Source: Ostreococcus lucimarinus (Eukaryota). From it: a stretch of 64,000 nt of DNA. The notes below the pieces were generated by a model, which made no database searches, was not told the origin of the DNA, and was given only the letters and a program-made list of their open reading frames with translations. The stretch lies in NCBI GenBank assembly GCA_000092065.1, contig CP000596.1; one strand, 5' to 3'. A program made the translations under genes and the position numbers. How positions within the stretch are numbered: the first letter of the stretch is position 1; the number at the start of each line of letters is the position of its first letter. Below are positions 756 to 48,827 of the stretch, one piece after another.

Positions 756-1802
756 TCACAACCCGAGCGATGAATAGTATTTCGCCACTAGTTGGCTCAA
801 ACGATTGCCATCGGCGCCGCTAAATGTTTCCGCCTTGCGCCCTTCGCAATACACCGCGAACGTGGGCATGGACGAAACGCGCTCGTAACCCGCTATGTCT
901 TGCGCCGCGTCGACGTCGACTTTGATGAAGTGCGCCGCCGGATACTTGGTCGCGAGCGACGTGAACACCGGCCCAATCATCTTGCAAGGCCCGCACCAGG
1001 TCGCAGTGAAATCCACAAAGACTAATTTCATCGTTTTCGTCAAACGTTGGTACTCCGCCATTTCGGTCACCTCTCGACATCCGGCTTGGACTTGCGGCTT
1101 CTTCAGCGCCGCTCGACATCCGTTCAAACTCGCGACTAAGCTCACATCTCCCGGCAAATCCTCCCACAGCCTCGTGAATACAACATCCGCTTCGGCGTAT
1201 TTCCCTAAAGCCGCCAATGCCGTCGCTTTGCGCAGCGAAGCCTTTTGATACGTTTCGCATCTCGCCAACGCTTCGTTCGCGTCGGCGAGCGCGTCCTCGT
1301 GTTTGCCCGACGCCGACTTACACGCCGCGCGATTACAAAACAACAGACTCGCCCCTGGAACATCGCTTCCACCGTTCGCTAATCCCTCGCTATACGCCTC
1401 GGCCGCGCTCTCGCGATCGCCCGCCTTGAATTTATCGTTGCCGAGCGCTCGCGCCGCCGCCAAGCGTTCCAACTTCCCCTTCGCGAGCGCCTCCGACGAA
1501 TCTCTCAATCCCTCGACCGCCCCGTCCAGCGTCCCCGCGCGCACGAACAACGACTCCAGGCGCGTCTTCGCGCGTTCGTACGACTCGCACGCCGCCCACG
1601 CGCGCGCACAGGCGACGACGGCGTCGTTCAGGTGTTGTCCCAGTCCCATGGCCATCAGCGCCGCCGCGGCGTTGGCGCGCGCTTTCGCGACGTCCAGGGG
1701 CGTCGAGGCGCATTCGGCGGCTTGTTCGTACAGGTCTAGAGCTGATTTAAAGTCGCTATTCTTCAGGGCGTCGTTGCCGCGCGCGCGAAGGTCGGTGGTC
1801 AT
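756..1802 (-). CDS. TPR-repeat thioredoxin (TDX/HIP-like): N-terminal TPR helices plus C-terminal thioredoxin domain
   Basis: C-terminal TATWCGPCKMIGPVF...KVDVD...MPTF thioredoxin fold with the WCGPC active site; N-terminal Ala/Leu-rich TPR-like repeats; ATG confirmed at 1802. Confidence 0.8.
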   Translation of the reverse strand: MTTDLRARGNDALKNSDFKSALDLYEQAAECASTPLDVAKARANAAAALMAMGLGQHLNDAVVACARAWAACESYERAKTRLESLFVRAGTLDGAVEGLRDSSEALAKGKLERLAAARALGNDKFKAGDRESAAEAYSEGLANGGSDVPGASLLFCNRAACKSASGKHEDALADANEALARCETYQKASLRKATALAALGKYAEADVVFTRLWEDLPGDVSLVASLNGCRAALKKPQVQAGCREVTEMAEYQRLTKTMKLVFVDFTATWCGPCKMIGPVFTSLATKYPAAHFIKVDVDAAQDIAGYERVSSMPTFAVYCEGRKAETFSGADGNRLSQLVAKYYSSLGL

Positions 1803-1850: not shown

Positions 1851-2798
1851 TCAGCCATACGGAGAACTTTCTCGCAAGATACGTGTCCACGCTTCTCGGT
1901 TCTTCTCTGCGCACTCGTGCAGGAATTCGTCTCGCTCTCGCGGCGTCATGGCGTCTAGGTACGCTTTGTGGCACTTCTTGCACATGCGCGTGTACGGATG
2001 GTGCCAATAGTACTTGCCGAGATTCGCACGGTACTTCCGCACGCTTCTGTCCGTCCCGCACGCTCGGCACGTCATGCCCTCCGGCGCCGGCGGCGTCGGC
2101 TCGCGACGCTCCATCCAAGCTTTCGATTTACGCCGTCCCGCTGCCTCGGCGCACTGTTTGTCGAACTCCTCTCGTGCCTCGGGCGTCATCGCGTCTAGGT
2201 GCACTTCGTGGCACTTGACGCACATGCGCGTATGCGGACGTTCCCAACAGTACTTGCCGAGATCCGCACGGTACTTCCGCACGTTTCTGTCCGTCCCGCA
2301 CGCTCGGCACGTCATGCCCTCCGGCGCCGGCGGTCTCGGCTCGCGACGCTCCAGCAGAGCTTTCGATTTACGCCGTCCTGTTTCCTCGGCGCACTGTTTG
2401 TCGAACTCCTCTCGTGCCTCGGGCGTCATCGCGCCGACGTGCGCTTCGTGGCACTTGACGCACATGTGCGTGTGCGCACGTCTCCAATAGTACTTGCCGA
2501 GATCCGCACGGTACTTCCGCACGCTTCTGTCCGTCCCGCACGCTCGGCAGGTCATGCCCTCCGGCGCCGGCGGCCTCGTCCCGCCGCCGCCCGACTCCGC
2601 CCTCAAAACGACCGCGCATCGCGCGTCGCTCAGGCACGCCTCCCCCAAACGTCTCGTTATCGTCTCCAGCGCCCCCCGCGCGCCGTCCCGTCCCACCGCG
2701 CGTCGCGCGTCGACGCGCGTTCGCCCGTCCCGACGCCCCCGAGCGCACAATCTCGCGTCGACCGACACCGACGCCGACGCCGCGCGCGCCGCGAGCAT
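1851..2798 (-). CDS. tandem-repeat Cys4His2 zinc-binding protein with three 80-aa repeats (unclassified domain); start may instead be 2966
   Basis: Three copies of PPAPEGMTCRACGTDRxVRKYRADLGKYxWxRxHTxMCVKCHExHxxAMTPEAREEFDKQCAE, each encoded by a 240-bp DNA repeat; first plausible ATG at 2798. Confidence 0.55.
   Translation of the reverse strand: MLAARAASASVSVDARLCARGRRDGRTRVDARRAVGRDGARGALETITRRLGEACLSDARCAVVLRAESGGGGTRPPAPEGMTCRACGTDRSVRKYRADLGKYYWRRAHTHMCVKCHEAHVGAMTPEAREEFDKQCAEETGRRKSKALLERREPRPPAPEGMTCRACGTDRNVRKYRADLGKYCWERPHTRMCVKCHEVHLDAMTPEAREEFDKQCAEAAGRRKSKAWMERREPTPPAPEGMTCRACGTDRSVRKYRANLGKYYWHHPYTRMCKKCHKAYLDAMTPRERDEFLHECAEKNREAWTRILRESSPYG
1895..2600. repeat. 3 x 240-bp coding tandem repeat with a partial 4th copy
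   Basis: Near-identical 240-nt units beginning near 1968, 2208 and 2448 (cacttcgtggcacttgacgcacatgcgcgt...gggcgtcatcgcg). Confidence 0.75.
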
Positions 2799-2956
2799 CG
2801 CTCCCGTCGCGCTCGACCGCGCGCGGCGTAATTTACCGAACCGCGCGGCGCGCGCGCGTCGCGCCGCGCGTCGCCCCGCGTCGCGCCGCGTCGCGATCTG
2901 CGTCCGTCGCCTTCGTGCGTTTTCGACGTTTTCACCGAAAACACCCGGTCGATGCG

Positions 2957-3574
2957 ATGTCCGCACAGATCGTCGCGTCGCCGCGCCGCGCGATGTCCGT
3001 CCTGCGCGCCCTCGCGCGGCGCGCGCGCGCGCGCGCGCCTTCGCCGCGCGCCGCCGCGCTCGCGACGCGCGCGCGGGCGCCGCCGCCGCCGATGACGTCC
3101 GTCGACGCGCTCTGGGAGGAGGTTCGCGACGCGCGCAGCGGACAGATTTACTACTGGCAGACGGAGACCGACGAGACGACGCCGCTCGGCGCGCCTCGGC
3201 CGACGACGTACAGCGCGCTCGACCCGACGATGCCGGCGCCGACGCGATCGGGGACGCGCGCGCCGCCGCCGTCGCGAGATCTCGGCGCGGCGGGAGGGTC
3301 GGCGGCGGGCGGATTCGGGTCGATGATCGCGCAGGGCGCGGCGTGGGGGATGGGGAGCTCGTTGGGACACCGCGCGATCGGAGGGATGTTCGGGTACGGC
3401 GGGTACGGCGGCGTCGGCGGGGTCGGCGGCGGCGAGGGCGCGATCGGGGAGGCGGGAGGGACGGAGGCGCCGGCGCCGCCGGATTTCGGCGCGAGCGAGT
3501 TCGACGACGACGACGGATTCGGCGACGGTGGATCCGACGGTGGATCGTTGTTTGATTTCTTTTCCGAAGACTGA
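2957..3574 (+). CDS. small WW-domain protein with a Gly/Asp-rich acidic tail
   Basis: LWEEVRDARSGQIYYWQTETDETTPLGAPRP fits the WW consensus (W...G..YYxN..T.ETxW..P), followed by GYGGYGGVGG and DDDDGFGDGG low-complexity tail; ATG at 2957. Confidence 0.45.
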   Translation: MSAQIVASPRRAMSVLRALARRARARAPSPRAAALATRARAPPPPMTSVDALWEEVRDARSGQIYYWQTETDETTPLGAPRPTTYSALDPTMPAPTRSGTRAPPPSRDLGAAGGSAAGGFGSMIAQGAAWGMGSSLGHRAIGGMFGYGGYGGVGGVGGGEGAIGEAGGTEAPAPPDFGASEFDDDDGFGDGGSDGGSLFDFFSED

Positions 3575-33253: not shown

Positions 33254-36200
33254 TCAGATGACGGAGCTGTAGCCGTCGACTTGGCGTGACGTCGTCGCGA
33301 CGAGCGACGTACGTTCGGACATTTCGGCGTCGGCTGGACGCGCGCGCGCGCGGAACGCGAACGCGAACAGCGCGACGCACAGCGTGAACGCGAAGGGAGT
33401 GTAAAAAATTGCGACCTTTTGACTGCCGTCGATGTCATCTTGAGGGCTCGATGATGCGAGAGATGATTTTTGTCGTGGAGAAGATCCCGACGACCCTAGT
33501 TGTGGCGTTTCGGCGGTGCTCGCGCCGACGCGCACAGGTGCGACGAATTCAAACTCAGCCGCTGGGTTGCCTGCGACGTCGGTCACTTCCGTAACAGTCA
33601 CTTTGTGATAGCCTTGTGAAAAGTATGGAAACTTCATCAACCAGTGACCACCAGCGCCATCGTTAACGCATTGAAGGACGTACTGTCTCAAGTCTTCGTT
33701 GGAAACGGCTTCGAAGGGACCCGTCGACGAGTTGCCTCGCTTGGCCGTGATCACTTGCTTCGTGCAATCAATGTCTTCCATGAAATCGACGCGTTGCGTT
33801 ACCTGTGAGCTCACATATTTGAAATCACCGACGAGCGGGTCCTTCGTATCTATCTTCACCATGAGATTTTGATCGCTCACAAATTCGTGCACTGACGGCT
33901 TTGCGAGGTGAGATCCGCCCACGCACATTGTTTTCAATCGGATATCATATTTCCCATCTTTATATCCACTCAGAAGTTTGTTGTAAGGGTCGTTTAGATC
34001 CCAGTCAAAGATGCAACCGTCTCCACCCCGCGACTCCGGGCAAAGTAAATTGAAATTCTTATTCGTGCCGGCACCGCGCTCGGCGTCTTTCGCTGTGATC
34101 CATTCGCCTCCTGATACCGAACGATATTGCACGTAGACGTAGGCGAGATTCCCATTCGTCACCAACGCTTCGGACGTGGATGCAGTTTCCTTGGGCCAGA
34201 GAGAATATCTATTCGGATTTACGACCGAGATGCTCAAAACGCTCGAATCAGACGCTGCGCTCTTCTCAAAGTAACTTGCTTCCTTGCTGAGCGTAGACGA
34301 GTGAAAAGCAACTTGAGGGCAATCTTTACTCCACGACATGGCACCGAGTGTAACACTGCTCGAGATGATCGGGCGATACATGTATTCTTCAATCATCGAC
34401 TCACACAAGCTCACCAAGGAAATCCCCAGGTACGAGCTTTCATACACTCCGTCGCTTGGCTCCACGCTCAGAAGCACGCGACTCTCGCGCACAACGCTTT
34501 GCGAATCCATACGCTCTCCAGCCAATCTTCGTAGAGGTAGGACTTCACCGAATGACCACATTTGAATACCATTGATCGAGAACTTCATTCCCTGTAGGAG
34601 TGTTCCTTGTGCTGTAGTGGTTTGCGTGAGACGAGCGATTGCGTTTGCCAACAATCTCCCTGCTCTGACGCTCATTGACTGTTCGTATGACGCTACGATG
34701 TCTTCAATCCGCGCCTTCAGGTCTTGAATGTCATCAGACTCTGACGCAAAGCATTCGTGGCTATCCGCCATGGCGTATGCTGCATTCTTTACGAACGTTG
34801 CGTTGTCCTCGTTCAACTGTGCCGCGTTATGAGCAGCCGCGATGATTTTTCCAACGCAGTCGGCGACTCCATCTACCAAACGAAGGCCCATGTTGGCCAC
34901 TTCCTTGTAGGGCGACTCATTGCTGATGAGAAGTTGGATCAAAGCGTGCTCTCCTGGGTTCAGATTCGTGTTATGCGTCGACTCCTTACCTATGGTAACG
35001 CCAGCTTCTCGGAACATCGTCCATTTTTCTCCCGGACATTGACTTCTGCCGCCCATCGTGATGAACACTGGAGATCCGAAACGTTTGTCGGAACTGACCT
35101 GGAGCACAAACTTATCCCCAAAATCTGGGTCACCTAATGAGTACATCGTGCTCATGTGTTCATACTTTGCCCAGGCAAAGGCACGACTTTTTGAAACTGA
35201 CTTGCTCATATCCGTGGTAGCACCTACATGCCCCTTGACGATGGCGATTGAACCCGCGAAGGAGTATCCGTTTTCAGCTGAGCCGTCCAGGCTGAGCGTC
35301 CATGCGTAATCTTGACCGTCGACGTTTTCGTTGGAAGAAAATATGTACTCTGTCGAAGCACCACCGCCGCTAAACGATAGTAAAATTGCTTCATCAGCGG
35401 GTCCATTCGAATCTGTGGTGGAGTAGCCGCGGGGACCCATACGCCCTGTAAACGACGCATCGACTCGTTTCGTATCGTTCATGTAAATGGATGCATCCTC
35501 TCCGAGCGTAAGATCGCTAAGATCGCTCGATTGAAGTAGTTGTGACGACACGTCTAGAGCCTGCGTTTTGCATTTTTCTGTGATGCAGGATGAAACCGTG
35601 TTGTTCAGATCTTCACGAGTGGGGCTATTCATCCCCATTGTCGTGACGAGCTCATCCGCTTCTTGAAATTGCTCGAGGAACTTCGGCTTCATCCTTTCAC
35701 TCTTTCGTGACCAGAAAACCTTGCCGACGTCTGGGGTGGCGTCGTTATCGTCGTCGTCACCGCGGAACCCAAGGTTTCCACTCAACAAGTCTGAAAATAA
35801 AGTCCCGGGATTGCTAACGTAGCCACTGATGAGCTGGGACAATCGAGATTCATCCGTCTCATCCGAGAGAATGAAGTCGTTAAGTGTGTCTATAGTACCA
35901 TCCGCGTCGCCCAAGTCCCCTGGAACGCCATGTATGTATGGACTAACTCTGTCGATTCTCTTCCAAGCAAGCTTCAACTCGTCTATTGGGGTAGAAATCG
36001 GACCGCTCGCGTCACTTATGAACGATGTTTCCATTTTCTCGGCTTCCATACCGAACGCGGATTGTTCATCCATAAAAGGAACCATGATGCGCTCCATTGC
36101 GCCGTAGTTTTTACCGTACAACACGGGAGCGCCTTCCGCAGTCGGCTCCATAGGAACCTTGTACACTGTTGGCGAAGCCCACAAAAGTGTGCGTTGCCAC

Positions 36201-39200
36201 ACGTTAATTTTGTCAGCGATGTACTGTGGCCAATTAGGCGCTTCCATTTTAGAATCATCCCCGACGATGAGGCCGCTTTCCACGACGGAAAGCAAATACC
36301 GCAAGTTTGGAATCACTTTCGCTTCAATCGAGTGTACCGTGAATATGTAGGACGTGGGTTTCCTCGGCATCCATGTGATCGCCGTCGATATCCGCAAGCA
36401 CGGTTTATCGTCTTCCCTTAGCGCAAGATCGAGCGTATCGGCTAGCCTGTAGACAAGTTCAACGCCGCCACCTAGAATCGCATCGCCCTGTCGTCCCGGG
36501 ATGGCGACGTCGGTACTTGTCCGTATGACACGATTTATCGTAGCCGTGAGATCCCAACCGACGGCGGAACTCTGAGCGACCGAAAATTCTGGTCCAGACT
36601 CCTCATGGTATGCGTCAAAATCTATCTTAAAGAGAGGCATTCCGAGCTGGAATAAAACCTCCATGCCATACCCAGCGCCGAACCCAGGTTTCGCCTCCAC
36701 TTCGAGTTCTACGCCGCCACCGCCTTCGTGTGAACTCGACACAGACGCCGCTTGTTCGTCTGAAAGCTCCACGGACATGGTCACTTCCGTGCCCATAAGA
36801 AGTTCGGCGTAAGAGTTGCCACCGGGCGGATCATGTACCGTCATGTACACCAAACCTTCGAGTGGAACAGTTGCCCAATACACGTCATCGCTTTCTTCGC
36901 CGTAGATCCCTTCGCCTCGCGGTTTCGAGCCAAGAGAGATGAGCTCTCGTTTCAACGGAACTGTCACTGTCATCGAACCATCAAATCTACCCACAGTCAG
37001 TTCGACAGATCTGCGGTAATTTCCTGAGAGCTTAGGATCTCCCGCGACAATGAGTCGATCCGTCGTCTTCTCGCCCTCATCCGTGGGGAATAAAAGTTTG
37101 TCGCTCTCCGGATCGATCTCAACGTCAAAGTCGCACAATGGTCCTCCATTGCGATCGGTATGACATGGATTTTCGGCTATATCGGTGACGCTTTGTCTGA
37201 ACATGGCCACCGTCATCCCGCCGCTCTCGGCGCTAGGCAGTGTCAAGCATTCATCGAGTGAACCATTCTCCACATGCAGTTCAAGTACTTTGGCGCTCAC
37301 AAGTTTCGGCCCCAAAGCGTAGAGCCCTTCTCCACCGAAATCATCAAAAAATGGCGATATCCCAACAAAGTGGTTGTGTCTAATGCCACCAGCTTTCACG
37401 CCATCAACGTCCCAGCAGTAATCGCCATCGTCGGTGATTACAGAAAGATCTACGAACTCTGCGCACAAATAACCGTGGTACTTGTATCTCGCCGAATACC
37501 AAGTGTGCTCAGTGCGTAATGGTACAAGCCTTTCGATCGTTGTTGGATGCTGGCGGAAGTATGGAATGATGCCGTCTACTCCGACATGACACAACGCGTT
37601 CGGATATTTCTCCTCGCGCATCGCCGTGAAATTCGCTGTGGATGGGGCCTCTTCGATCACTACCGAGTAATCCATCGCGGCGAGTGGCCACCGTCTTCCA
37701 TTCGGAACTTCTTGATATGTTGGTATAACGTCTGAGTTTTCCTTGTCGCGGTCAGGTAGAGTCCAGCCGGATACTTGAGCCGAAGTGAAGATGGCTGGTG
37801 GGTGACAGCCATTGATGGGGGTAATTTTGAAAGTCGCCCCTGTGTAAAGCTTTTCACACTCACCTTGATAGACACCCAAATCGACGTTTGCCGTCGTCGT
37901 GTCTGAGAAGAAAATGTACTTTTTCGATGATACGGCGTGGAGAGTAACTGTGGTCGGTTTACCGTCGCAGCTCCAAATTCTCGTAGCTTCCACGATGGTG
38001 GTTCCCGAATAGCAGATTTCGTGACCGGGATATTCCGCGGTTATCGTGTAGGTTTTCCCGTTTGTGACTGCGAATTCGAACCAGCCAGTCTCGTCTGTAG
38101 TGAATTGTCGCGGCGCACCAGCCTCGCTTTCATCTTTGACATAAATGCTTGCCTCAAAAAGTCCACACTCGGACAACTCGGTCCATTCTATTGGGAACAT
38201 GACGGCACCCAAAATGACCACTGTCGTATCGTCCTGCATTTTCTGCTCTACCTGATGATTATGGGTCAGCTCCAGGTTGATGACATCAATATCAGCCGTA
38301 TCCGAAAATACGGTATCACTTTCATATAGGTCACCATCGTCATCCGAAGTTCCAGCTTGCTTGACGACGTCATTGTTGTTGAATACATGCACGATTTCTG
38401 GCAGCTGCTGCGTGCTCCACAGCGCGACATCCAATCCAGGACGAGTGACGCGCGCGAACAGCGTCTGCGGATCATCTTGAACCACGTCGTGCAGTAGTGC
38501 GGCATCTAAGTCAACGAAAATCTTATTCGAGCCGGGAGATGTAGCAAGTAACGGTGTTGCATACACGGAGGTCTCATCGCCGACGACAATGGCATCGAAC
38601 TCGGCGTCTTCGAGAGGGCGACAGTGATCGATTTTTGACACAACATCACCCCCACTCTCTGCGCTGAGCTCATCATACCACTCGTTCCATCCCTCGGAAG
38701 AGTACGGAACGTGGGCTGATGTCGATCTTCGAACGATGAAATTTTCGCACGCTTTGCCAAACACTTGGCTACGCGCATCCTGGTGAGACTCGTCGGCGAT
38801 CGCAGCGCTAACACTCTGCACGGTGAACAAATCGAAGTCGTATGTAATTTTCCGCGGAGGGAATACGAGCACTGGCTCGACAAACAATGTCCGTTGAGCC
38901 AGACGATGCGCCACACTGAGGAATTCTTGTGCGTTCAGAAGTCCATCACCGTCCATATCCAACGACGAATTCCAAAGTTCTTCTGAAATTATCGCGTACC
39001 CATTGCTTGGAAAACTCGCACCTTTCTCGATGATGGCGGTCAACTCTGACTTATCGATGCCCCCGCTTCCATCTGTGTCTGTCTCGTCAAAATCGTGCAT
39101 CGGTGGTGGAGGCGATGGCGGTGGTGGCGATGGCGGCGGCGGCGATGGCGGCGGCGGCGATGGCGGCGGCGGCGACGGCGGCGGTGGCGACGGTGGCGGC

Positions 39201-42200
39201 GGCGGCGATGGCGGCGGCGGCGACGGCGGCGGCGGTGACGGTGGCGGCGACGGCGGCGGCGGCGATGGCGGCGGTGGTGATGCGATGCGCTCGACCCAGT
39301 GAACGTTTGTGAGAGAACCGGCCTTGACAGAGATATCCGCATGCAGCGGGTACTCGGGAGTCTGTTGACTGGTGTAAAAGCGAATTTCATTCTTGAAGTA
39401 CTCCACGGCTCCGGCGTCGTTGATGACGATTTGCAGCGAGTCGGACGAAGAGTAAGTCCCAGCCATCGTATACTCACGCTTGCCTTTCTCGTACACCTTG
39501 ATCTGTTTGGTATGCGTACAAAAAATCGCAAAATCAAGACTTTGATAATTCGTCGAATCCGTCGTCGACTGAGAGTTCAAACCGATCATCCTGTTGTTGT
39601 ATCCTCCGGCACAGACTGCGGAGATGCCACGCACAGAGTCAGAACCATTTCGAATAGCGCGCTGACTCACCGCACCGGCGTCCCAAGCGCCAGTCACTGC
39701 AGCCGTGCGCGTGACTTGGCCGCTTTCTGTGGATTCGACGCCGACTTGCGATACCCACGCGACATGATCGTCCGCCACCGCCTTTCCTGGCGGCGGCGGC
39801 GGCGGTGACGGTGGCGGCGGCGACGGCGGCGGCGGTGACGGTGGCGGCGGCGACGGCGGCGGCGGCGGCGACGGCGGTGGTGACGCGATGCGCTCGACCC
39901 AGTGAACGTTTGTGAGAGAACCGGCCTTGACAGAGATATCCGCATGCAGCGGGTACTCGGGAGTCTGTTGACTGGTGTAAAAGCGAATTTTATTCTTGAA
40001 GTACTCCACGGCTCCGGCGTCGTTGATGACGATTTGCAGCGAGTCGGACGAAGAGTAAGTCCCAGCCATCGTATACTTACGCTTGCCTTTCTCGTACACC
40101 TTGATCCGTTTGGTATACGTACAAAAAATCGCAAAATCAAGACTTTGATAATTCGTCGAATCCGTCGTCGACTGAGAGTTCAAACCGATCATCCTGTTGT
40201 TGTATCCTCCGGCACAGACTGCGGAGATGCCACGCACAGAGTCAGAACCATTTCGAATAGCGCGCTGACTCACCGCACCGGCGTCCCAAGCGCCAGTCAC
40301 TGCAGCCGTGCGCGTGACTTGGCCACTTTCTGTGGATTCGACGCCGACTTGCGATACCCACGCGACGCTACCAAGTATCTCGCCCGCCACCGCCTTTCCT
40401 GGCGGCGGCGGCGGCGGCGACGGCGACGGCGGCGGCGGTGACGGTGGCGGCGACGGCGGCGGCGGCGATGGCGGTGGTGGTGACGCCATGCGCTCGACCC
40501 ATTTAACATCGCTGAAGGAACCACGCATAATAAAAGCAACATCCGCGTGCAGCGGGTACTCGGGAGTCTGTTGACTGGTGTAAAAGCGAATTTCATTCTT
40601 GAAGTACTCCACGGCTCCGGCGTCGTTGATGACGACTTGCAGTGTATCGCTGTCCGTATACGCCACTGCAGCACCCTTAATTTTTTTACCACCTTCGTAC
40701 ACTTCAACTGCATCGGAGTGAAAATTGCATCTGATGCTGAAGTCCATTCGACTGGACACGGTCTCTGCCGCGGACTGCCGATTCAAGCCGATGAACTTGA
40801 GGCCGGACTCAGACCCACAACGAGCCGAGATTCCGCGCACTGAGTCCGTCAGGCCGTGGATCGACCGACGACTCACCGCACCGGCTGCGGAAAAATAATT
40901 CCACCAATTTGGAGATCGCCGCCAAACTTTTCGATTCGACGCTTTGGCTCTGCGAAGCGTCACCCAGACCACGTTGCCAACCGCCGCTTTTTCAGGCGGC
41001 GGCGGCGGCGGTGGCGACGGCGGCGGTGGCGACGGCGGCGGTGGTATGTACTGCGCAATGTTCCCCAGGAGGCGGCGCCCCCAGCGCTGCCTACCCAAGA
41101 GTGACGTCGTGGTTTCAGGAGATGACGAATCATCTTCCTTTAAGACCAATAAGACTTTACTGGGTACGTTCAGCGGGTCTGTCACGTCCGACGTTTGCAA
41201 GATGGGCTGCGTCGTCTTTTCAAAAACTTCCACTTTGTACGCCCCGATGTCAACGTGAGTTTTGATTGGCGTCATACCCGTGGAGTCTGTGATATGAACA
41301 ACAAACGATCCTTCCGAATCAGTGACCGCGCTGAAAGGGCATCGCGTCTCACCACCCAATACTCTTATTTCAGTCAAATTGACGTCTCGAACCGCCACGA
41401 CTGATACAAACTGCCCGTGCATCGCCTGCACAGTGTCGCCCCCGCCCCCCCCGCATGTAAACGTCAAACAGTCTGCGAATTCATCACTGACATCAGACGG
41501 ATCGTGGTTACATGCATATCCATAATTAGTCGTGTCTTCGGGATCGATTTCATGCACGTGCACTTTCATCGGTAAACTAAGCGTCGGACTCGCCTGTTGC
41601 CGAAATTCAAATCCCGTTACTTCAACTTTGCTCGATTCCGCACCAAACGAAATCTCGGGGAAAGTTATGTATTGATCTTGAGATGATATGAGGGTGGCGT
41701 TGAAACGTCTCCACGATTCCTCATGTATGGTGAATGATTCCGTACTGGCGTCAGTGGCGGATGTTCCGCGCAAGTCGATTGACACCGCGCGTTCACCACC
41801 CAAAGACTTCGCCCAAAACGACACCACGACAGAATCTCCAGTCAGGGCGCGCAAAGACTCGCCAGGAACGTGCACCGTGACTGAAACGCCTGCGTCCACC
41901 GATTTTACAACGTCCTCGAAACCAGGTGGAGGCGCAGTTGGGCTCGCGGTTAAAGGACTGATGGCGCTTGTCTGAACAAGCTCGAGGCGTTCGGTGAGAG
42001 TATTAAGAGTGAAATGAGCTCCGGTGAAGTAGAACGTACTTTCCGACCAAGCTGATACAGTAAATCCGACGAAAGCGGCGTCCTCTAACGTGTGCTTAAG
42101 CCTTATTTTCCTCCATTTATTCGGTTCAGCTGTAATGACGAGCGCGTCACCAACGGTCTGACGGCCTGCTGCTGTAGTTTGTTGTTCATACCCTAAAATC

Positions 42201-45162
42201 TGGAAAGTCATAATCGCCTCCTTCCCGACGGCGCGTACCCAGCATTCCAACAACACTGTATCACCAGCTTCGGCGTCTAGTCGATCAGTATTTTTCGCCC
42301 AGAGTTTCTCGTCTGCTCGCACGAGTCGGATGACATCATTCTCGTAACGAGGTGGATCAACGATCACGTCTGGATCATCGCCTGTATCGCCAGAATACCC
42401 CAGTCGGTCGGTGAGAGAACCCTCGGCAAGTTGGCGTGCCTTGATCGATTGCGGCTGTAGACATACTTGAACACTGCCTATTGACATCCAAAGACCAAGA
42501 TCGACGCGCGCGTAGCCACCCGTCGATACGACGACAGATTCACCGGTAGGTATGTGATTCCCATCGGTGAGCGTGTACGCTTGTTCATTCAAAGGGTTTG
42601 AGTATGCGTGCTTGAAAAGTGCGACATTGCTGGAAGATGATTCGACGTCGTCGCTCGGCCGTAAAGTTATCGTCGAATTCTCATTTTCATCCGCGTCTGG
42701 AGGCCTGGACCCTCGGTAATTTGCGACCTCCCCATCTATTACGATCGGGTCGTGAAAATTAGCGCATATTCGGACGTCGGGTACTGGAACAGCGGAATCA
42801 CCGGCGTACACGTAACCACCTACCTCTCCGTGCCAGGGCGTGATGAATTTGAAAGGGACAGAGTTTATACTTCCACCGGATGATGTTTTCGTCACCACCT
42901 TATACTTCCAAATCTGTCCTGGGATTGCCGCCGCCTCTCTGTCGGCGAAAAGCAACGGCGCGTACGATCGATGACAGTACGTGAGGCCACTGTCAATCAT
43001 CACCACTGACTCATAAGGTGCATCCGTCAGAGAATCCTGCATGCTTTGACGAAGAATCTCGAACCCAACGTCATTCCAGGCGGTATCACGGAAGCTGAAA
43101 GTGACTCCTACTGGATCCAGTTTTCCGTTGACGTCAATAGTAGAACCATCGTAGTACAATCCACCTCCACATTCAAACTTTGAGTAAGTTTCCTCGCGAG
43201 CGTCCGAAATGACGCCACTTAAACACACAATTCTTCGAGCTTTTGGTGCGGATGATTGACGAAGCACGCAGCGCTTGTAATGTCCACATCTTACGGTATC
43301 AATGAACATCACTTCGCGTATCACTCCGGTATACACTCGAACGTCGTCGAATTCAAAATCCACCGCGCCAAGCAGTGTAACGTCCGTCATTGACTCGAGC
43401 GCGCTCAGCGGCCAAGTTTCATCGCGCGTGTAAGTCGTATCATCGATTACTGTGGCCTTTGCGTCACTCGTTGGATCTACGTACAATGTCATGAAATTCA
43501 CCGAGTTTACGGCGAACGCGATGAGGTGCCACTCCCCGTCGCACGCAAAATCAAGTTTCACATCCTTTGAGGATGTGAAAGCGCTCGGAGGATCCACAGA
43601 CTCCTTGACCTGATGAGATGCCCGCAGTTCGACCATGCCGTCGCTCGTACGTATCTTGAGGTATACGTGGAGTCTGTGATCGTGAAGTCCCAACTGTCCT
43701 TGAAACTGAGCGACCGTCATGAGTGATTCGTCGTTGGAGGATTTGGGTTGCGAGCAACGACTTGGATCGATGCGCACCCATGTGCTCATCGCGATGTCGT
43801 GCCCAAGCGTATCTTCTTTATCAAGAGAGTATGAATAATCGTTCGTCCCAGGATCATCCACTGCTTGAAGGCAGCGAAATCCGTTGCCCCCCGAACATCC
43901 CGATATTGTGCGAGCGGATTTCGGCTGCAATCTCATCGGGACGGAAGACTGTCCGTCGACGATTGGCGCGACCGAATCAAGCGATCCGTCGTGTAAAGGG
44001 TCTTCATCAAACGTAAATGCTGCCACGAGAGAAGCGTGTTCGTCGAGAAAGTCACTCGTTGCTGGGCGAATGTCCGTGAAGGAGATGGGAAGTTGAAGCG
44101 TCGTGCCGCCGACTTCATACTCTTCAAAGCGCACATCGACGACGTCGTCGACTGTACCGTCGGCAACGTTGATCTGATTGAAGAGTATACCATCCACGTA
44201 TGCGCAGACGTAATCGCCGTTCGTTGGCTTAGGACTGTACGACCATGCAGTGGTGAGCCCGTTGAGGCCACTCACACAGCGATTCTCCGTTTGCCAGTCG
44301 AGAGTCGGATAGGTGATGCTATCGATACTGAAACTGTTCGACGGAGCTCCGCTGCACTTGACGGGTCGAACGGGGATTTCCATCACGTCGACAATAGACA
44401 CTGCCAGATCTGTGTCGTGCGCGGCGCGAAATTGGTCATTCCAAACGTTGAGAATGTACCTCGAAACGCTTTGTTCCACCAACATGGCCTGAAGTTCATT
44501 CAGTCGCAGCAGTCCGTCGCTGGGATCGACGTCGTGCCTACGAAAGATGCTTTCCTTTGTCTTGTAAATTTCGCCATCATCGCACAGCACGTTGTTGAAT
44601 TGATCGTTACTCAGCAATATGTACCGGACCAGTTCTTCAAGCCCCGAATTCTGATTCGCGCTCGCTTGGCCGGCGGCGTTGAATCCGAGAGGCAGGTGCA
44701 AATCGCAACCCTTGATAACTTCGAAAGAGTGTTGACCAACGGTTTCCGAACCTGGAACGATGCCATCGACCGTAACAAAGTGACAGTTATAAGTTATGGT
44801 GTGAGATCCAACCGAGTGCGTCCCATCCAACTCTGTGAGCGCGAGCGCCTTCGGGAAAAAATCATTCCATTTGCGACACGGTAAGTTATCCGCGTAATCC
44901 GACTCGGAACACGACTGATCGTCTCGTTTCACGCGAACATCGCATCGGAGACCAAGCGCGTGATTGCTCACGCTCTCTTCATTCACATTCAGTAAACAAT
45001 CGCTCGCTTCAGCGCACGCGGGATGATGCACCGCGACTTGGAAATCGTACGAGTACGCCGCAACCCTCTCCGTGGTGGAACCAAATCTCACTTCAATCGC
45101 AGCACCGGCACCAGGCGGCGGCGGTGGACTCGGCGGCGGCGGGCTCGGCGGCGGGCTCGGCG

Positions 45163-45202
<40 letters not shown>

Positions 45203-45484
45203 CGGACTCGGCGGCGGCGGCGGGCTCGGCGGCGGCGAACAATTCGCTATACCCTCGCAATTCTCCGTTCGTGTTTGTCCCTCATACGCTCCACAACTTC
45301 GTCCACCGTTTCGCGGCTTGACGGTGATCGTGAACGTCTGCGAGTACGTCGCCGGTCCGCAAAAAGCCGTGCAACTCCCTTGCCAAAAGCCTACACAATC
45401 CGTTTTCGGCGGCGACGGCGACGACCCCCCGTGGACCCCTCGCAGCGACGACAGCGCGCTCGCGACGACCAACCCGCGCATCAT
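33254..45484 (-). CDS. giant single-exon cell-surface glycoprotein (about 4,076 aa from the MMRGLVV signal peptide); predicted type-I membrane protein with a hydroxyproline-rich/extensin-like multi-domain ectodomain
   Basis: Uninterrupted 12.3-kb ORF. MMRGLVVASALSSLRGVHG signal peptide; Cys-rich TSP1-like module (SCTAFCG...KPRNGGRSCGAYEGQTRTENC); many S(P)4 runs; two perfect EF-hand loops (DTDGSGGIDKSE, DMDGDGLLNAQE); three 201-aa repeat modules; C-terminal TM IFYTPFAFTLCVALFAFAF plus a 30-aa tail; GC about 48-52% versus 65-70% in flanking genes. Confidence 0.8.
39103..41040. repeat. 3 x 603-bp coding tandem array inside the giant gene (units begin near 39291, 39894, 40497) separated by GGC/GGT-rich Pro-linker DNA
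   Basis: Antisense ORFs at 39299 and 39902 translate identically over more than 150 aa (exact 603-nt offset); third unit at +1206 is more diverged; each unit encodes a 201-aa module ending ...AVEYFKNEIRFYTSQQTPEYPLHAD. Confidence 0.85.
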
Positions 45485-45569
45485 CGTTCGCGTCGCGTCC
45501 CATCGACGTCCGGCGCCATCGCGCGTCGTCGACCGCGACGGCGCGCGTCGTTCGCGAAGCTGACGCGGC

Positions 45570-45602
<33 letters not shown>

Positions 45603-46218
45603 GTCGTCCGTCCTCGCGCGCGGCCCTCGCGCGGGCGCCGCGTCGTCGCGCGTCGGGGGTTTCGGTTCGCTCCGCGTTCGTCGCGCTCGCGTCGCGCGAT
45701 GCCGTCGCGCGCGCGACGAACGCGCGCCGCGACGTTTGGGGGAGGTGTTGCGTCTTTTCAAAAAAAAACGAGGGTGTTACAAGGGTGTTACGAGGGTGTT
45801 GCGCGCGGGGCGTTACAAAATAAACGTCTAGGCTAGTTGGAGGACGCGAGGTCGAACGGATTGTTTTCTTCGGGATTCAATCGAATTCTTCGGAATTCTT
45901 GGAGATGCGAGCTCCGCAGCGGACCTCGCGCCCTACGCCTTCGCCCGATTTCGGCGAACGAACGAACGATCGCTCGCCTTCCGGCGGCGGCGCCGACAGC
46001 CCCTCGGGACTGGCGACCACCCACCTGGGAGGAGGGAAATCCCTGACCGCGATGCGCACCATCTCGAATGCGCGCACTCGGGATGATCCACGGACCCGCG
46101 CGCGCGCATCCGAACGATGCGGTAGGGAGTTTCTTTCGACCGACGCTTTTTTTTGTTTGACTTCCGTCGCCCCCGAAGGCGCGTCGACCGCTTCCATCGT
46201 AAAATTCGCGCGCGTCCG

Positions 46219-46764
46219 CTACATCTCGCCGCACTCCGCGATCACGCACGGCAGCTTGGGCTTATTCCCGCCCCCCGTCGCCACGTTCTCCACCTTTCTA
46301 ATCACCAACATCCCGTCTCCCAGCACGCGTCCGAACACCACGTGCTTATCGTCCAACCACTCCGTCTTCGCGCACGTCACGAAGAACTGGCACCCGTTCG
46401 TGTCCGGCCCGCTGTTCGCGCTCGACAGCAACCCCGCACCCGTGTGCCTGCCGACGAACGCCTCGTCGTCGAACTTCGATCCGTATATCGACGCGCACCC
46501 CGTGCCGTCGCCGTTGACGAAGTCCCCGCCCTGAATCATGAAATCCTTGATCACGCGATGAAACGCGCACCCCTTGTACCCTCGCGGCGCGCCCTCGCGC
46601 GAGCGAAACTCCCCCGCGCACATCTGCCTGAAGTTTTCGCACGTCTTCGGCGCGACGTCGGCGAAGAGCTCGAACGTCACCCGCCCCGCGCTCGCGCCGC
46701 CGATCGTCACGTCGAAGAAAACCACCGGATTCGAGTCGACGCGCGCGCGATCGTGCCACGACAT
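46219..46764 (-). CDS. CYP: cyclophilin A-type peptidyl-prolyl cis-trans isomerase
   Basis: [35 protein letters not shown]...[15 protein letters not shown]...[12 protein letters not shown]...HVVFGRV is canonical cyclophilin. Confidence 0.9.
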
Positions 46765-47363
46765 CCTCGGCGACGACGCGCGGCGTCGCCCGCGACGCGC
46801 GCGCGCGGTCCCGGTCGCGCCTCGCGACGCGACGCGGCGATGAGTGTGGACGATTCCTCACATCACAGCGCGCGACGTCGACCGCGTCGACGCTCGGACC
46901 CTCGCGAGACCTTCTCTTTATGGCCGACGACTTAGTGTTCGGTGCGTCGACGCCACGCGCGCGGCGCGTCGCGATCGCGTCGCGGCGCGCGCGCGGCGAC
47001 GCGATCGCGACGCGCGATCGCGACCTCGAATCGCGAACGATTCTTTCGGCGTCGCGCGGTTCGCGGCGCGCGCGCGCGCGAAGGGCGCGCGCGCGCGCGC
47101 GATGGACGCGCGATCGTCGCGCGCGACGGCGAGCGGCGCGAGCGGGGACGACGCGACGCGCGCGGGACGGGAAAACGGGACGATGGAGGGATCGCGCGGC
47201 GCGAGGGCGCGCGAGACGACGAGGCGCGCGGGAAGCGCGCGGATCTCGGACGAGACGCGCGAGGGATGACGAGGGATGACGAGGGATGGGGCGCGATGAC
47301 GACGACGACGACGACGCGAACGAGAGACTGACGAGAGGCGCGCGACGAATCCGCGAGACGCAG

Positions 47364-47713
47364 CCAACGATCCCTTTGCTAACGAAGCGCTTGACTTTGG
47401 AGACGAAGAAAAGCCAAAAAAGGAAAAGAAGGAAACCGCGGACTCGGTTCAGGAGAACTACATTCACATTCGCGTGCAACAGCGTAACGGACGTAAGAGC
47501 TTGACGACGGTGCAAGGACTCAACCCGAAGATCAACAAGAAATTGGTGCTCAAGGATCTCAAGAAGAAGTTCAACTGCAACGGATGCATCGTTGAGGATC
47601 CCGATCACGGAGACATCGTTCAGCTTCAAGGAGACCAGCGTAAGCAAATCGCGACGTTCCTTCTCGAGGCGAAGATTTCTAAAAAGGCGTTGATCAAGGT
47701 GCACGGGAGTTAA
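47364..47713 (+). CDS. SUI1: translation initiation factor eIF1 (SUI1), main coding exon only; initiator-Met exon not resolved
   Basis: DPFANEA...ENYIHIRVQQRNGRKSLTTVQGL...LKKKFNCNGCIVEDPDHGDIVQLQGDQRKQIATFLLEAKI...IKVHGS aligns to eIF1 along its length; the frame has a TGA at 47297 and no ATG between it and the DPFA motif. Confidence 0.8.
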
Positions 47714-48035
47714 AATCTCACGCGCGTGATTTCACGACGGACGCGACGAGACGTCCAAAATTTTACTTACACGTTACACGACGCAAACGCGCGACTGGGA
47801 GACGGCGACCGCCGAAAGACAGACACGTTGAGGGGGGGTAGATTTTTTACCCGCGGCGCTCGCGCCGCCGGTGTACTTCTTGTAGCTTTCTCTTAGCGTT
47901 GTCAGATACGAAATGATACGAATTGCGTGACTTTCGTTTACCAGCCAAACTTCGTCAAGGGCGCGCTCTCGCGAGACGTCGAGTTTAAAAGTTCAATCTC
48001 ACACTACACACACCGCTCGTTCGATTCGTTCGCCG

Positions 48036-48827
48036 CTATTCTTCCTCATCCGGCGACGCGGCCTCGTCTTCGGTCGCCGCCTCCGCCGCGTCGTCGCCGC
48101 GTCGTTTCGTCCCCCACGAGCGCGCCTTTTCGTTCCTCGCCTTCGCCGCGGCCCTGCGCTCGTTCGCGCCCCCCCCGACCGGCCCGCTCACGACGACGTT
48201 CTTATAATTCTCCCCGCTCGACGTCATTTTCAGAATTTTAAATCCGCACAGCTCTCCGACCACGGGCGCGTCCACCTTCCCCCCCCCCGCCGCCGCTCGC
48301 TCCGCCGTCGTCGGCGGCGCTCGACCTCGATACGCTCTCGCCGGCAAAAACGCAATCATTCCCGCGATCCCCACCGCGTACCCCCCGTTCACCGCGTTCA
48401 ATATCCTCCCTTTCACCGTCGCACCCGCGTCGCGCGCTCGCACGAGCTCCCTCCACACCCGCTCCAGCGACCGCCGTCTCGCCAGCCCCTTCACCTCCAG
48501 GTCGAGCGCGCCCGCGGGATTATTCATCCACGTCACCCTCGCCTCCACGACGTCCCCGACCCGCGGCGTCGCGTCCAGCTCGCTCAACTTGTACGTCACC
48601 GCGCCCCGGATCCCCGTCAGCGCGCTCGCGACGCCGTTCCGCGCGTCGACGGCGACTATTCTCGTCGCGATGACTTTGCCCTGCACGCACGGCATCAGCG
48701 CGTTGTGCGCCGCGTCGTCGCGCGTCGGCGTCGAGTGCGGCGCCGTGGCGTCGCGCGTCGTCGTCGTCGTCGTCGCCGCGCCGCGCCGTCCCGCGAGACG
48801 CGCGAGCGCGACGCCGCGTCGAATCAT
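48036..48827 (-). CDS. S1 RNA-binding domain protein, organellar ribosomal S1-like
   Basis: VGDVVEARVTWMNNPAGALDLEVKG and KGRILNAVNGGYAVGIAGMIAFLPARAY S1-fold motifs; Lys/Glu-rich tail; ATG at 48827 (the 627-aa track ORF is over-extended upstream). Confidence 0.6.
   Translation of the reverse strand: MIRRGVALARLAGRRGAATTTTTTRDATAPHSTPTRDDAAHNALMPCVQGKVIATRIVAVDARNGVASALTGIRGAVTYKLSELDATPRVGDVVEARVTWMNNPAGALDLEVKGLARRRSLERVWRELVRARDAGATVKGRILNAVNGGYAVGIAGMIAFLPARAYRGRAPPTTAERAAAGGGKVDAPVVGELCGFKILKMTSSGENYKNVVVSGPVGGGANERRAAAKARNEKARSWGTKRRGDDAAEAATEDEAASPDEEE

Follow-up and report, generated by a model that had tools for sequence, protein, structure and literature searches.

Long 5'-proximal introns are a feature of the ribosomal-protein and translation genes of yeast. 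Among picoplanktonic green algae, the EST-confirmed introns of Ostreococcus lucimarinus that lie outside chromosome 2 have an atypical 5' consensus, GTGCGTG (Irimia & Roy 2008, PMC2483917), and 87% of them carry ACTGAC, with 66.5% showing the extended branch motif GACTGACG (PMC2483917). Intron length in this species averages 188 nt and reaches a maximum of 1773 nt (PMC2367439). The start codon of the translation factor eIF1 is reported to stand in poor context in most eukaryotes, U being the least favourable base at -3, and this underlies its autoregulation (PMC3326321).

The eIF1 (SUI1) gene of O. lucimarinus, contained in the window (the whole 64-kb stretch of DNA analysed here), has, with near certainty, two exons separated by a single conventional U2-type GT-AG intron. 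Like the long 5'-proximal introns of yeast, it belongs to an intron-poor genome with strict signals, follows a very short first coding exon, interrupts a highly expressed translation gene and is above the genome-average length. Unlike them, it is found in another lineage and has ACTGAC as consensus instead of TACTAAC. It is similar to the 'non-chromosome-2' introns of O. lucimarinus (PMC2483917) in its donor, GTGCGT followed by C or G, in having GACTGACG shortly 5' of the CAG and in being confirmed by transcripts, and departs from their norm in its length (422 nt compared to a mean of 188, inside the reported range) and in the C found at +7, where the consensus has G. The product is comparable to the poor-context eIF1/SUI1 proteins (PMC3326321 and papers cited there), being a 123-aa SUI1-domain protein with a single N-terminal AUG and U at -3, although the +4 G of O. 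lucimarinus is favourable and Micromonas has G at -3. With the introner elements of Micromonas (PMC4540971) the intron shares its presence in a Mamiellales gene and its internal repeats, but it is single in the 64-kb window, and at this scale not an introner-type repeat, and its position is ancient, being common to three genera, and does not reflect a recent insertion. Spliced products of eIF1 are already present in public transcript collections, and for Ostreococcus its first intron is a textbook case, interrupting a housekeeping gene and of small biological weight. What is extended here, by sequence comparison only, is the -3 U pattern, to several picoplanktonic green algae.

Exon-intron structure of eIF1

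The SUI1 frame that ends at the TAA is open back to 47300 only, with a TGA in frame at 47297-99, and both direct reading and a script confirmed that this frame has no ATG 5' of the conserved DPFANEA (47369 onward). From this situation the original prediction had deduced that the N-terminus must come from an upstream exon and suggested searching for a Met-containing mini-exon, which is indeed found in spliced contigs at 46920-46941, with 22 nt of coding sequence and the 422-nt intron on its 3' side. From 46920 the window reads ATGGCCGACGACTTAGTGTTCG/GTGCGTCGAC (the slash marks the boundary between exon 1 and intron), and joining 46941 to 47364 keeps the frame (phase 1) and yields the 123-aa protein MADDLVFANDPFANEALDFGDEEK...IKVHGS. 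This spliced product begins with MADDLVFANDPFANEALDFG and ends with IKVHGS; its N-terminus is MADDLVFANDPFA and not the expected 'MS...DPFA', the N-terminal peptide predicted by the spliced model being (M)ADDLVFANDPFANEALDFGDEEK. Exon 1 supplies no more than seven codons (MADDLVF) plus a single further base, G. The Pfam domain SUI1 (PF01253) covers residues 38-112 with 88.7 bits (cut-off 25.5, E = 3.4e-25), and the identity reaches 77% with the SUI1 of O. tauri and 64% with that of M. pusilla. More than 2300 homologues were found in the protein search, and the product agrees with the description of the family, a full-length small protein (about 110-125 aa) whose N-terminal tail has the DPF/FD motif at its end.

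Direct evidence for splicing is provided by four Logan contigs, each from a different sequencing run (L014-L017). They match the window with 100% identity as far as 46941 and then once more from 47363/4 onward, and they encode P0121, a protein identical to the predicted 123-aa eIF1. The junction has a 1-nt G ambiguity, and the GT-AG rule settles its placement. L014 carries 24 non-templated A after 47930 and is therefore mRNA-derived, with the poly(A) site after this position, and L016 stops at 47930; in L015 and L017 the match to the window begins at 46882 and 46876, respectively, and runs to 46941. The RNA origin of the four contigs rests on the poly(A) of L014 and on size, the spliced contigs being all <2 kb and the unspliced ones up to 428 kb; intron 1 is present in all long genomic contigs. 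Two more proteins, P0001 (ERR1712205_13795) and P0002 (ERR1712216_1029958), run through the junction with 5'UTR, MADDLVF and ANDPFANE uninterrupted, reading ...TSQRATSTASTLGPSRDLLF-MADDLVF-ANDPFANE..., which is the translated window 46860-46941 joined to 47364. Both come from what we take to be Tara Oceans metatranscriptome runs (ERR1712205 and ERR1712216).

The 5' ends of the contigs were regarded as assembly products and not as transcription starts, because L014 and L016 extend upstream from the spliced eIF1 into the antisense cyclophilin gene and the 5' parts of L015 and L017 are unrelated sequence. The extension of L014 and L016 is best explained by overlapping divergent transcripts fused by the assembler, overlaps of such kind being reported for 8.9% of the EST clusters of O. 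lucimarinus (PMC2367439). Although they derive from different runs, P0001 and P0002 share an initial 'MG', after which they match the window from 46860. Speculatively, a template-switch oligo tail attached to a capped 5' end could have left this mark ('ATGGG' plus C46859), which would place the transcription start near 46859 with a 5'UTR of about 60 nt. P0002 is also missing nine residues (KLVLKDLKK), a 27-nt deletion at about 47537-47570 of the window with flanking AAGAA direct repeats. Template switching by the reverse transcriptase or an artefact of assembly is the probable cause, rather than alternative splicing, as no GT-AG fits.

As for the splice signals, the anticipated acceptor CAG is the one used, and the donor does lie more than 200 nt upstream of it, although at 46942 and not near 47116 as had been suggested. 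Neither a GC-AG nor an unusual intron is involved: the donor is GT, the signals are canonical and species-typical, and what the first reading of the locus had missed was a simple intron, GTGCGTC...GACTGACG...CAG, 422 nt long and in phase 1. No indication of a non-canonical class was seen at the intron start, where ATATCC and GTATCC are absent (U12 5' motif RTATCCTT checked). The CTGAC at 47328-32, already described as branch-like, is the core of the branch site GACTGACG, because the intron matches the published O. lucimarinus motif. The spliceosome excises 46942-47363 via the 5' site GTGCGTC, the branch site (47326-33), with A47331 as the putative branch point, and the CAG acceptor, so joining exon 1 to 47364; transcription would begin roughly 40-60 nt 5' of the AUG at 46920 and the mRNA is polyadenylated after 47930.

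Table 1. Features of the eIF1 locus in the window and equivalent mini-exons and introns in other Mamiellales.
Feature	Position	Strand	Remarks
Divergent intronless cyclophilin gene	46219..46764	-	Pfam Pro_isomerase E = 3.7e-46
eIF1 exon 1 (5'UTR + 22-nt coding mini-exon)	46859..46941	+	P0001/P0002 translation, L015/L017 matches; 5' end approximate
Exon 1 coding part ATGGCCGACGACTTAGTGTTCG	46920..46941	+	MADDLVF + first base of Ala8; spliced translation
Intron 1, 422 nt, phase 1, GT-AG	46942..47363	+	Absent from L014-L017
5' splice site GTGCGTC	46942..46948	+	6/7 positions match O. lucimarinus consensus GTGCGTG
Near-perfect 52-nt palindrome	46964..47015	.	26-nt arms, 96% complementary, no spacer; inverted repeat I2
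10-nt tandem repeat CGAGGGATGA x3	47260..47299	+	Third copy degenerate; repeat family D2; (GAC)6 comes next
Branch-site motif GACTGACG	47326..47333	+	29 nt between motif and AG; identical to extended branch consensus
3' splice site CAG	47361..47363	+	Junction 46941/47364 in L014-L017
eIF1 exon 2	47364..47930	+	CDS 47364-47713, stop TAA 47711-13, 3'UTR 47714-47930
O. tauri (L006), coding exon 1	2751-2772		Intron 2773-3028, 256 nt
O. mediterraneus-like contig (L020), coding exon 1	1608-1629		Intron 1630-2013, 384 nt
M. pusilla CCMP1545 (L012), coding exon 1	3001-3025		Intron 3026-3322, 297 nt, verified vs transcript L013
M. commoda-like contig (L021), coding exon 1	913-937		Intron 938-1519, 582 nt
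Bathycoccus-like contig (L022), coding exon 1	1250-1274		Intron 1275-1636, 362 nt, GTACGT...CACTGAC...TAG

Mini-exon and intron across Mamiellales

A phase-1 intron is located at the same place, after a coding mini-exon of 22-25 nt, in five other Mamiellales (Table 1). The GTGCGT donor is also present in O. tauri, the O. mediterraneus-like contig and both Micromonas, GACTGACG in the introns of O. tauri and the O. mediterraneus-like contig, and the O. mediterraneus transcriptome proteins P0125 and P0127 start with MADDLVFANDPFA. O. tauri, the O. mediterraneus-like contig and L007 keep the peptide of the mini-exon, their nucleotide changes being all synonymous (TTA/CTC/TTG, GTG/GTT/GTC, TTC/TTT, GCC/GCT and GAC/GAT along the seven exon-1 codons of Ostreococcus), and the 5'UTR and the intron interior are unalignable among Ostreococcus sequences. 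At this position no intron occurs in the eIF1 genes annotated for Pedinophyceae and Dunaliella, and we discarded on this basis an ancient origin across green algae; as far as this small sample goes, the intron is restricted to Mamiellales or has been retained by them alone. M. pusilla has in addition a second eIF1 intron (L012:3473-3635), after SLTTLQ and in phase 0, at whose place the annotated pedinophyte gene (L033) also has an intron, the Dunaliella one being two codons earlier. The Ostreococcus species read here are without this second intron, so that Ostreococcus kept only the 5'-proximal one.

The AUG context of eIF1 in O. lucimarinus is CTCTTTAUGG, with U at -3, -2 and -1 and a favourable G at +4. 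It is GATATAUGG in O. tauri, the O. mediterraneus-like contig and L007 and AATATAUGG in the Bathycoccus-like contig, U at -3 being common to all four, whereas the context in the two Micromonas is GUUAUG, which puts G at -3. In the window as a whole, a rough survey of the -3 position of first ATGs (a tally of the ORF list with guessed first ATGs) gave a purine in about 19/28 cases and T in 5/28. On sequence grounds, the contexts of Ostreococcus and the Bathycoccus-like contig fit the autoregulation pattern, and we infer that the U-rich (-3 U) context may serve the known eIF1 autoregulation.

The intron itself is G-rich (45% G, 7% T), and GT dinucleotides in 46900-47370 are restricted to 46935, 46937, 46942, 46946, 46968, 46979, 47051, 47059 and 47116. 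The GT-free stretch pointed out at first is real up to the CAG at 47361-63, but it is longer than was believed, as it covers 47117-47447 instead of beginning at about 47161, and with 331 nt it is the longest such run on either strand of the window. Mononucleotide shuffles of 47118-47363 gave P about 0.001 for zero GT; however, we consider this absence a compositional by-product and not a signal, because T is scarce there (about 5%) and mostly confined to repeated GAT motifs. The three-copy direct repeat noticed in the initial reading also proved to be real (10-nt unit CGAGGGATGA). It includes a G-quadruplex-type motif (47263-47291), one of seven on the + strand of the window and one to which we attach no significance. 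Nothing equivalent to the repeat exists in the introns of O. tauri or the O. mediterraneus-like contig, and nothing points to a function for it. The palindrome, located 22 nt inside the intron, lacks conservation in other species as well. Two independent metagenome scaffolds (L023 and L032) have N gaps that start just 5' of it and span it, which suggests that it breaks assemblies, and an apparent intron length polymorphism (474 and 522 nt) was dismissed as an artefact of these N-filled gaps.

An Rfam scan of the intron (E <= 1) gave nothing at gathering score, the miRNA-like hairpin matches reaching <=31 bits vs cut-offs of 61-124 and falling on the CG palindrome, and BLAST against the 64-kb window retrieved only the intron itself, with no second copy. 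In the alignment of the three Ostreococcus introns only the ends and low-complexity CG runs are conserved, and no internal element emerged. The predicted folding of the O. lucimarinus intron is not better than that of shuffles (z = -1.6), the z-score of the O. tauri intron being -2.8; pairing between the 5' and 3' ends in the MFE structure was not compelling as a structural signal, as CG richness accounts for it. Across 15 genomic contigs (O. lucimarinus populations) the intron hardly varies, but it cannot be called unusually conserved within the species, because the entire 45974-48223 cyclophilin-eIF1 region is equally invariant. Altogether, we regard unconstrained low-complexity filler as the best account of the repeats, of the palindrome and of the GT-free, purine-rich stretch.

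It could be argued that the intron is more than filler, and that regulated retention of a long 5'-proximal intron, or splicing-dependent enhancement of expression, tunes eIF1 dosage, retention in O. tauri and O. mediterraneus exposing an in-frame AUG within the branch site (AUGACUGAC). The position is conserved in Ostreococcus, Micromonas and the Bathycoccus-like contig, even in Ostreococcus species that are without the second intron of M. pusilla, but the interior changes from one species to another and the O. lucimarinus intron has no in-frame AUG to expose. All six introns (256-582 nt) exceed the O. lucimarinus mean of 188 nt, and highly expressed genes of this species are enriched in introns (PMC2367439); against this stand folding no better than shuffles, the lack of an Rfam family and a low within-species diversity shared with the whole 45974-48223 region. 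The unspliced protein P0124 has mmetsp Transcript_5055 among its sources, the spliced P0125 and P0127 also having mmetsp names, although unspliced transcriptome contigs can be pre-mRNA or DNA carry-over. On balance we find a regulatory intron unlikely. A broader proposal starts from the joint conservation, within Mamiellales, of the mini-exon (22-25 nt), a long first intron and a U-rich AUG context (Ostreococcus and Bathycoccus, with Micromonas lacking the -3 U), and would combine the three into a dosage-control module of eIF1, in which the efficiency of splicing or retention would be a second layer over start-context autoregulation, and retention in O. tauri and O. mediterraneus would unmask the in-frame AUG overlapping the branch site; this proposal we regard as very unlikely.

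Other start codons and other donors

The missing AUG would also be accounted for if translation began at a near-cognate non-AUG codon of the unspliced mRNA within 47300-47363 (e.g., ACG about 47345), a case contemplated in the original prediction. The frame is open from 47300 and holds near-cognate codons, and start-site stringency matters for eIF1 (PMC3326321), but the AUG at 46920 is supplied by spliced, polyadenylated transcripts and the peptide of the mini-exon is under purifying selection across species, whereas the O. tauri and O. mediterraneus-like sequences do not conserve the one encoded by 47300-47363, RRRRRRERETDERRATNPRDA. An unspliced mRNA would, moreover, offer earlier AUGs at 46920, 47102, 47183, 47266, 47276, 47286 and 47296, and we give this kind of initiation hardly any credence.

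When all combinations of ATG, donor and acceptor were enumerated for donors in 46900-47300, 18 GT-AG and 240 GC-AG models were in frame arithmetically, and only 46942/47364 combines a consensus donor, an acceptor 3' of the branch motif and an N-terminus seen in transcripts. A different donor (GT 47116 or a GC-AG site), leading to a longer Arg-rich N-terminal extension, could draw on the 17 further GT-AG and the 240 GC-AG combinations, but none of them resembles GTGCGT except GCGCGTC at 46964, none appears in any transcript-derived sequence and none yields the conserved MADDLVFANDPFA N-terminus, making such a donor extremely improbable.

Neighbouring gene and annotation of the locus

The ATG of the divergent cyclophilin gene is 155 nt from that of eIF1. 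Its protein is identical to XP_001422030.1 of O. lucimarinus CCE9901, and a second protein of the window is also identical to a CCE9901 entry. Among the homologues found there was no NCBI-sourced O. lucimarinus eIF1 protein.

The two-exon structure has some value for annotation, as gene finders miss the 22-nt coding mini-exon. Prokaryote-style calls on metagenome contigs include a truncated 79-aa ORF with a GTG start (P0008, window 47474-47713, 151 contig blocks) and a spurious 141-aa ORF (window 46844-47269) that goes through 5'UTR, exon 1 and intron. The GenBank SUI1 model of O. tauri (P0005, 129 aa, MTDDARGAAANDPF...; GCA_002158475.1 KZ155790.1, L006:2751-3390) takes as its start ATG 3001, a codon almost certainly inside the intron and overlapping the branch motif (gATGACTGAC). 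The conserved mini-exon of this species, ATGGCCGACGACCTCGTTTTTG followed by GTGCGT, is found at L006 2751-2772 and would give MADDLVFANDPFANE, and the model is probably mis-annotated. In the O. mediterraneus cluster, P0124 (MTDACFFIVSLSRAANDPF...) is unspliced, reads out of the intron and starts with MTD like the O. tauri model. L020 (1970-2013) has GTGACTGAC at the branch site, an AUG over the branch motif being seen directly only in O. tauri and missing from O. lucimarinus.

One 937-nt metagenome contig (JGI 3300007956, L018:1-370) has the last ~52 nt of the intron and exon 2 (99.8% identity) joined to unrelated upstream sequence, which contains its own exon-like block between ...GACGCAG and GTGCGTCGAC. 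Either assembly across intron-end motifs has made this contig chimeric, or it represents a rearranged allele.

Elsewhere in the window, on the - strand, two identical 55-nt segments (39616-39670 and 40219-40273, 603 nt apart) have ends that resemble those of introns (GTGAGTCAG...TTCTGAC...CCGCAG). Both are within an uninterrupted ORF of 4105 codons (33254-45571, -) and, rather than introns, they are probably part of a tandem coding repeat.
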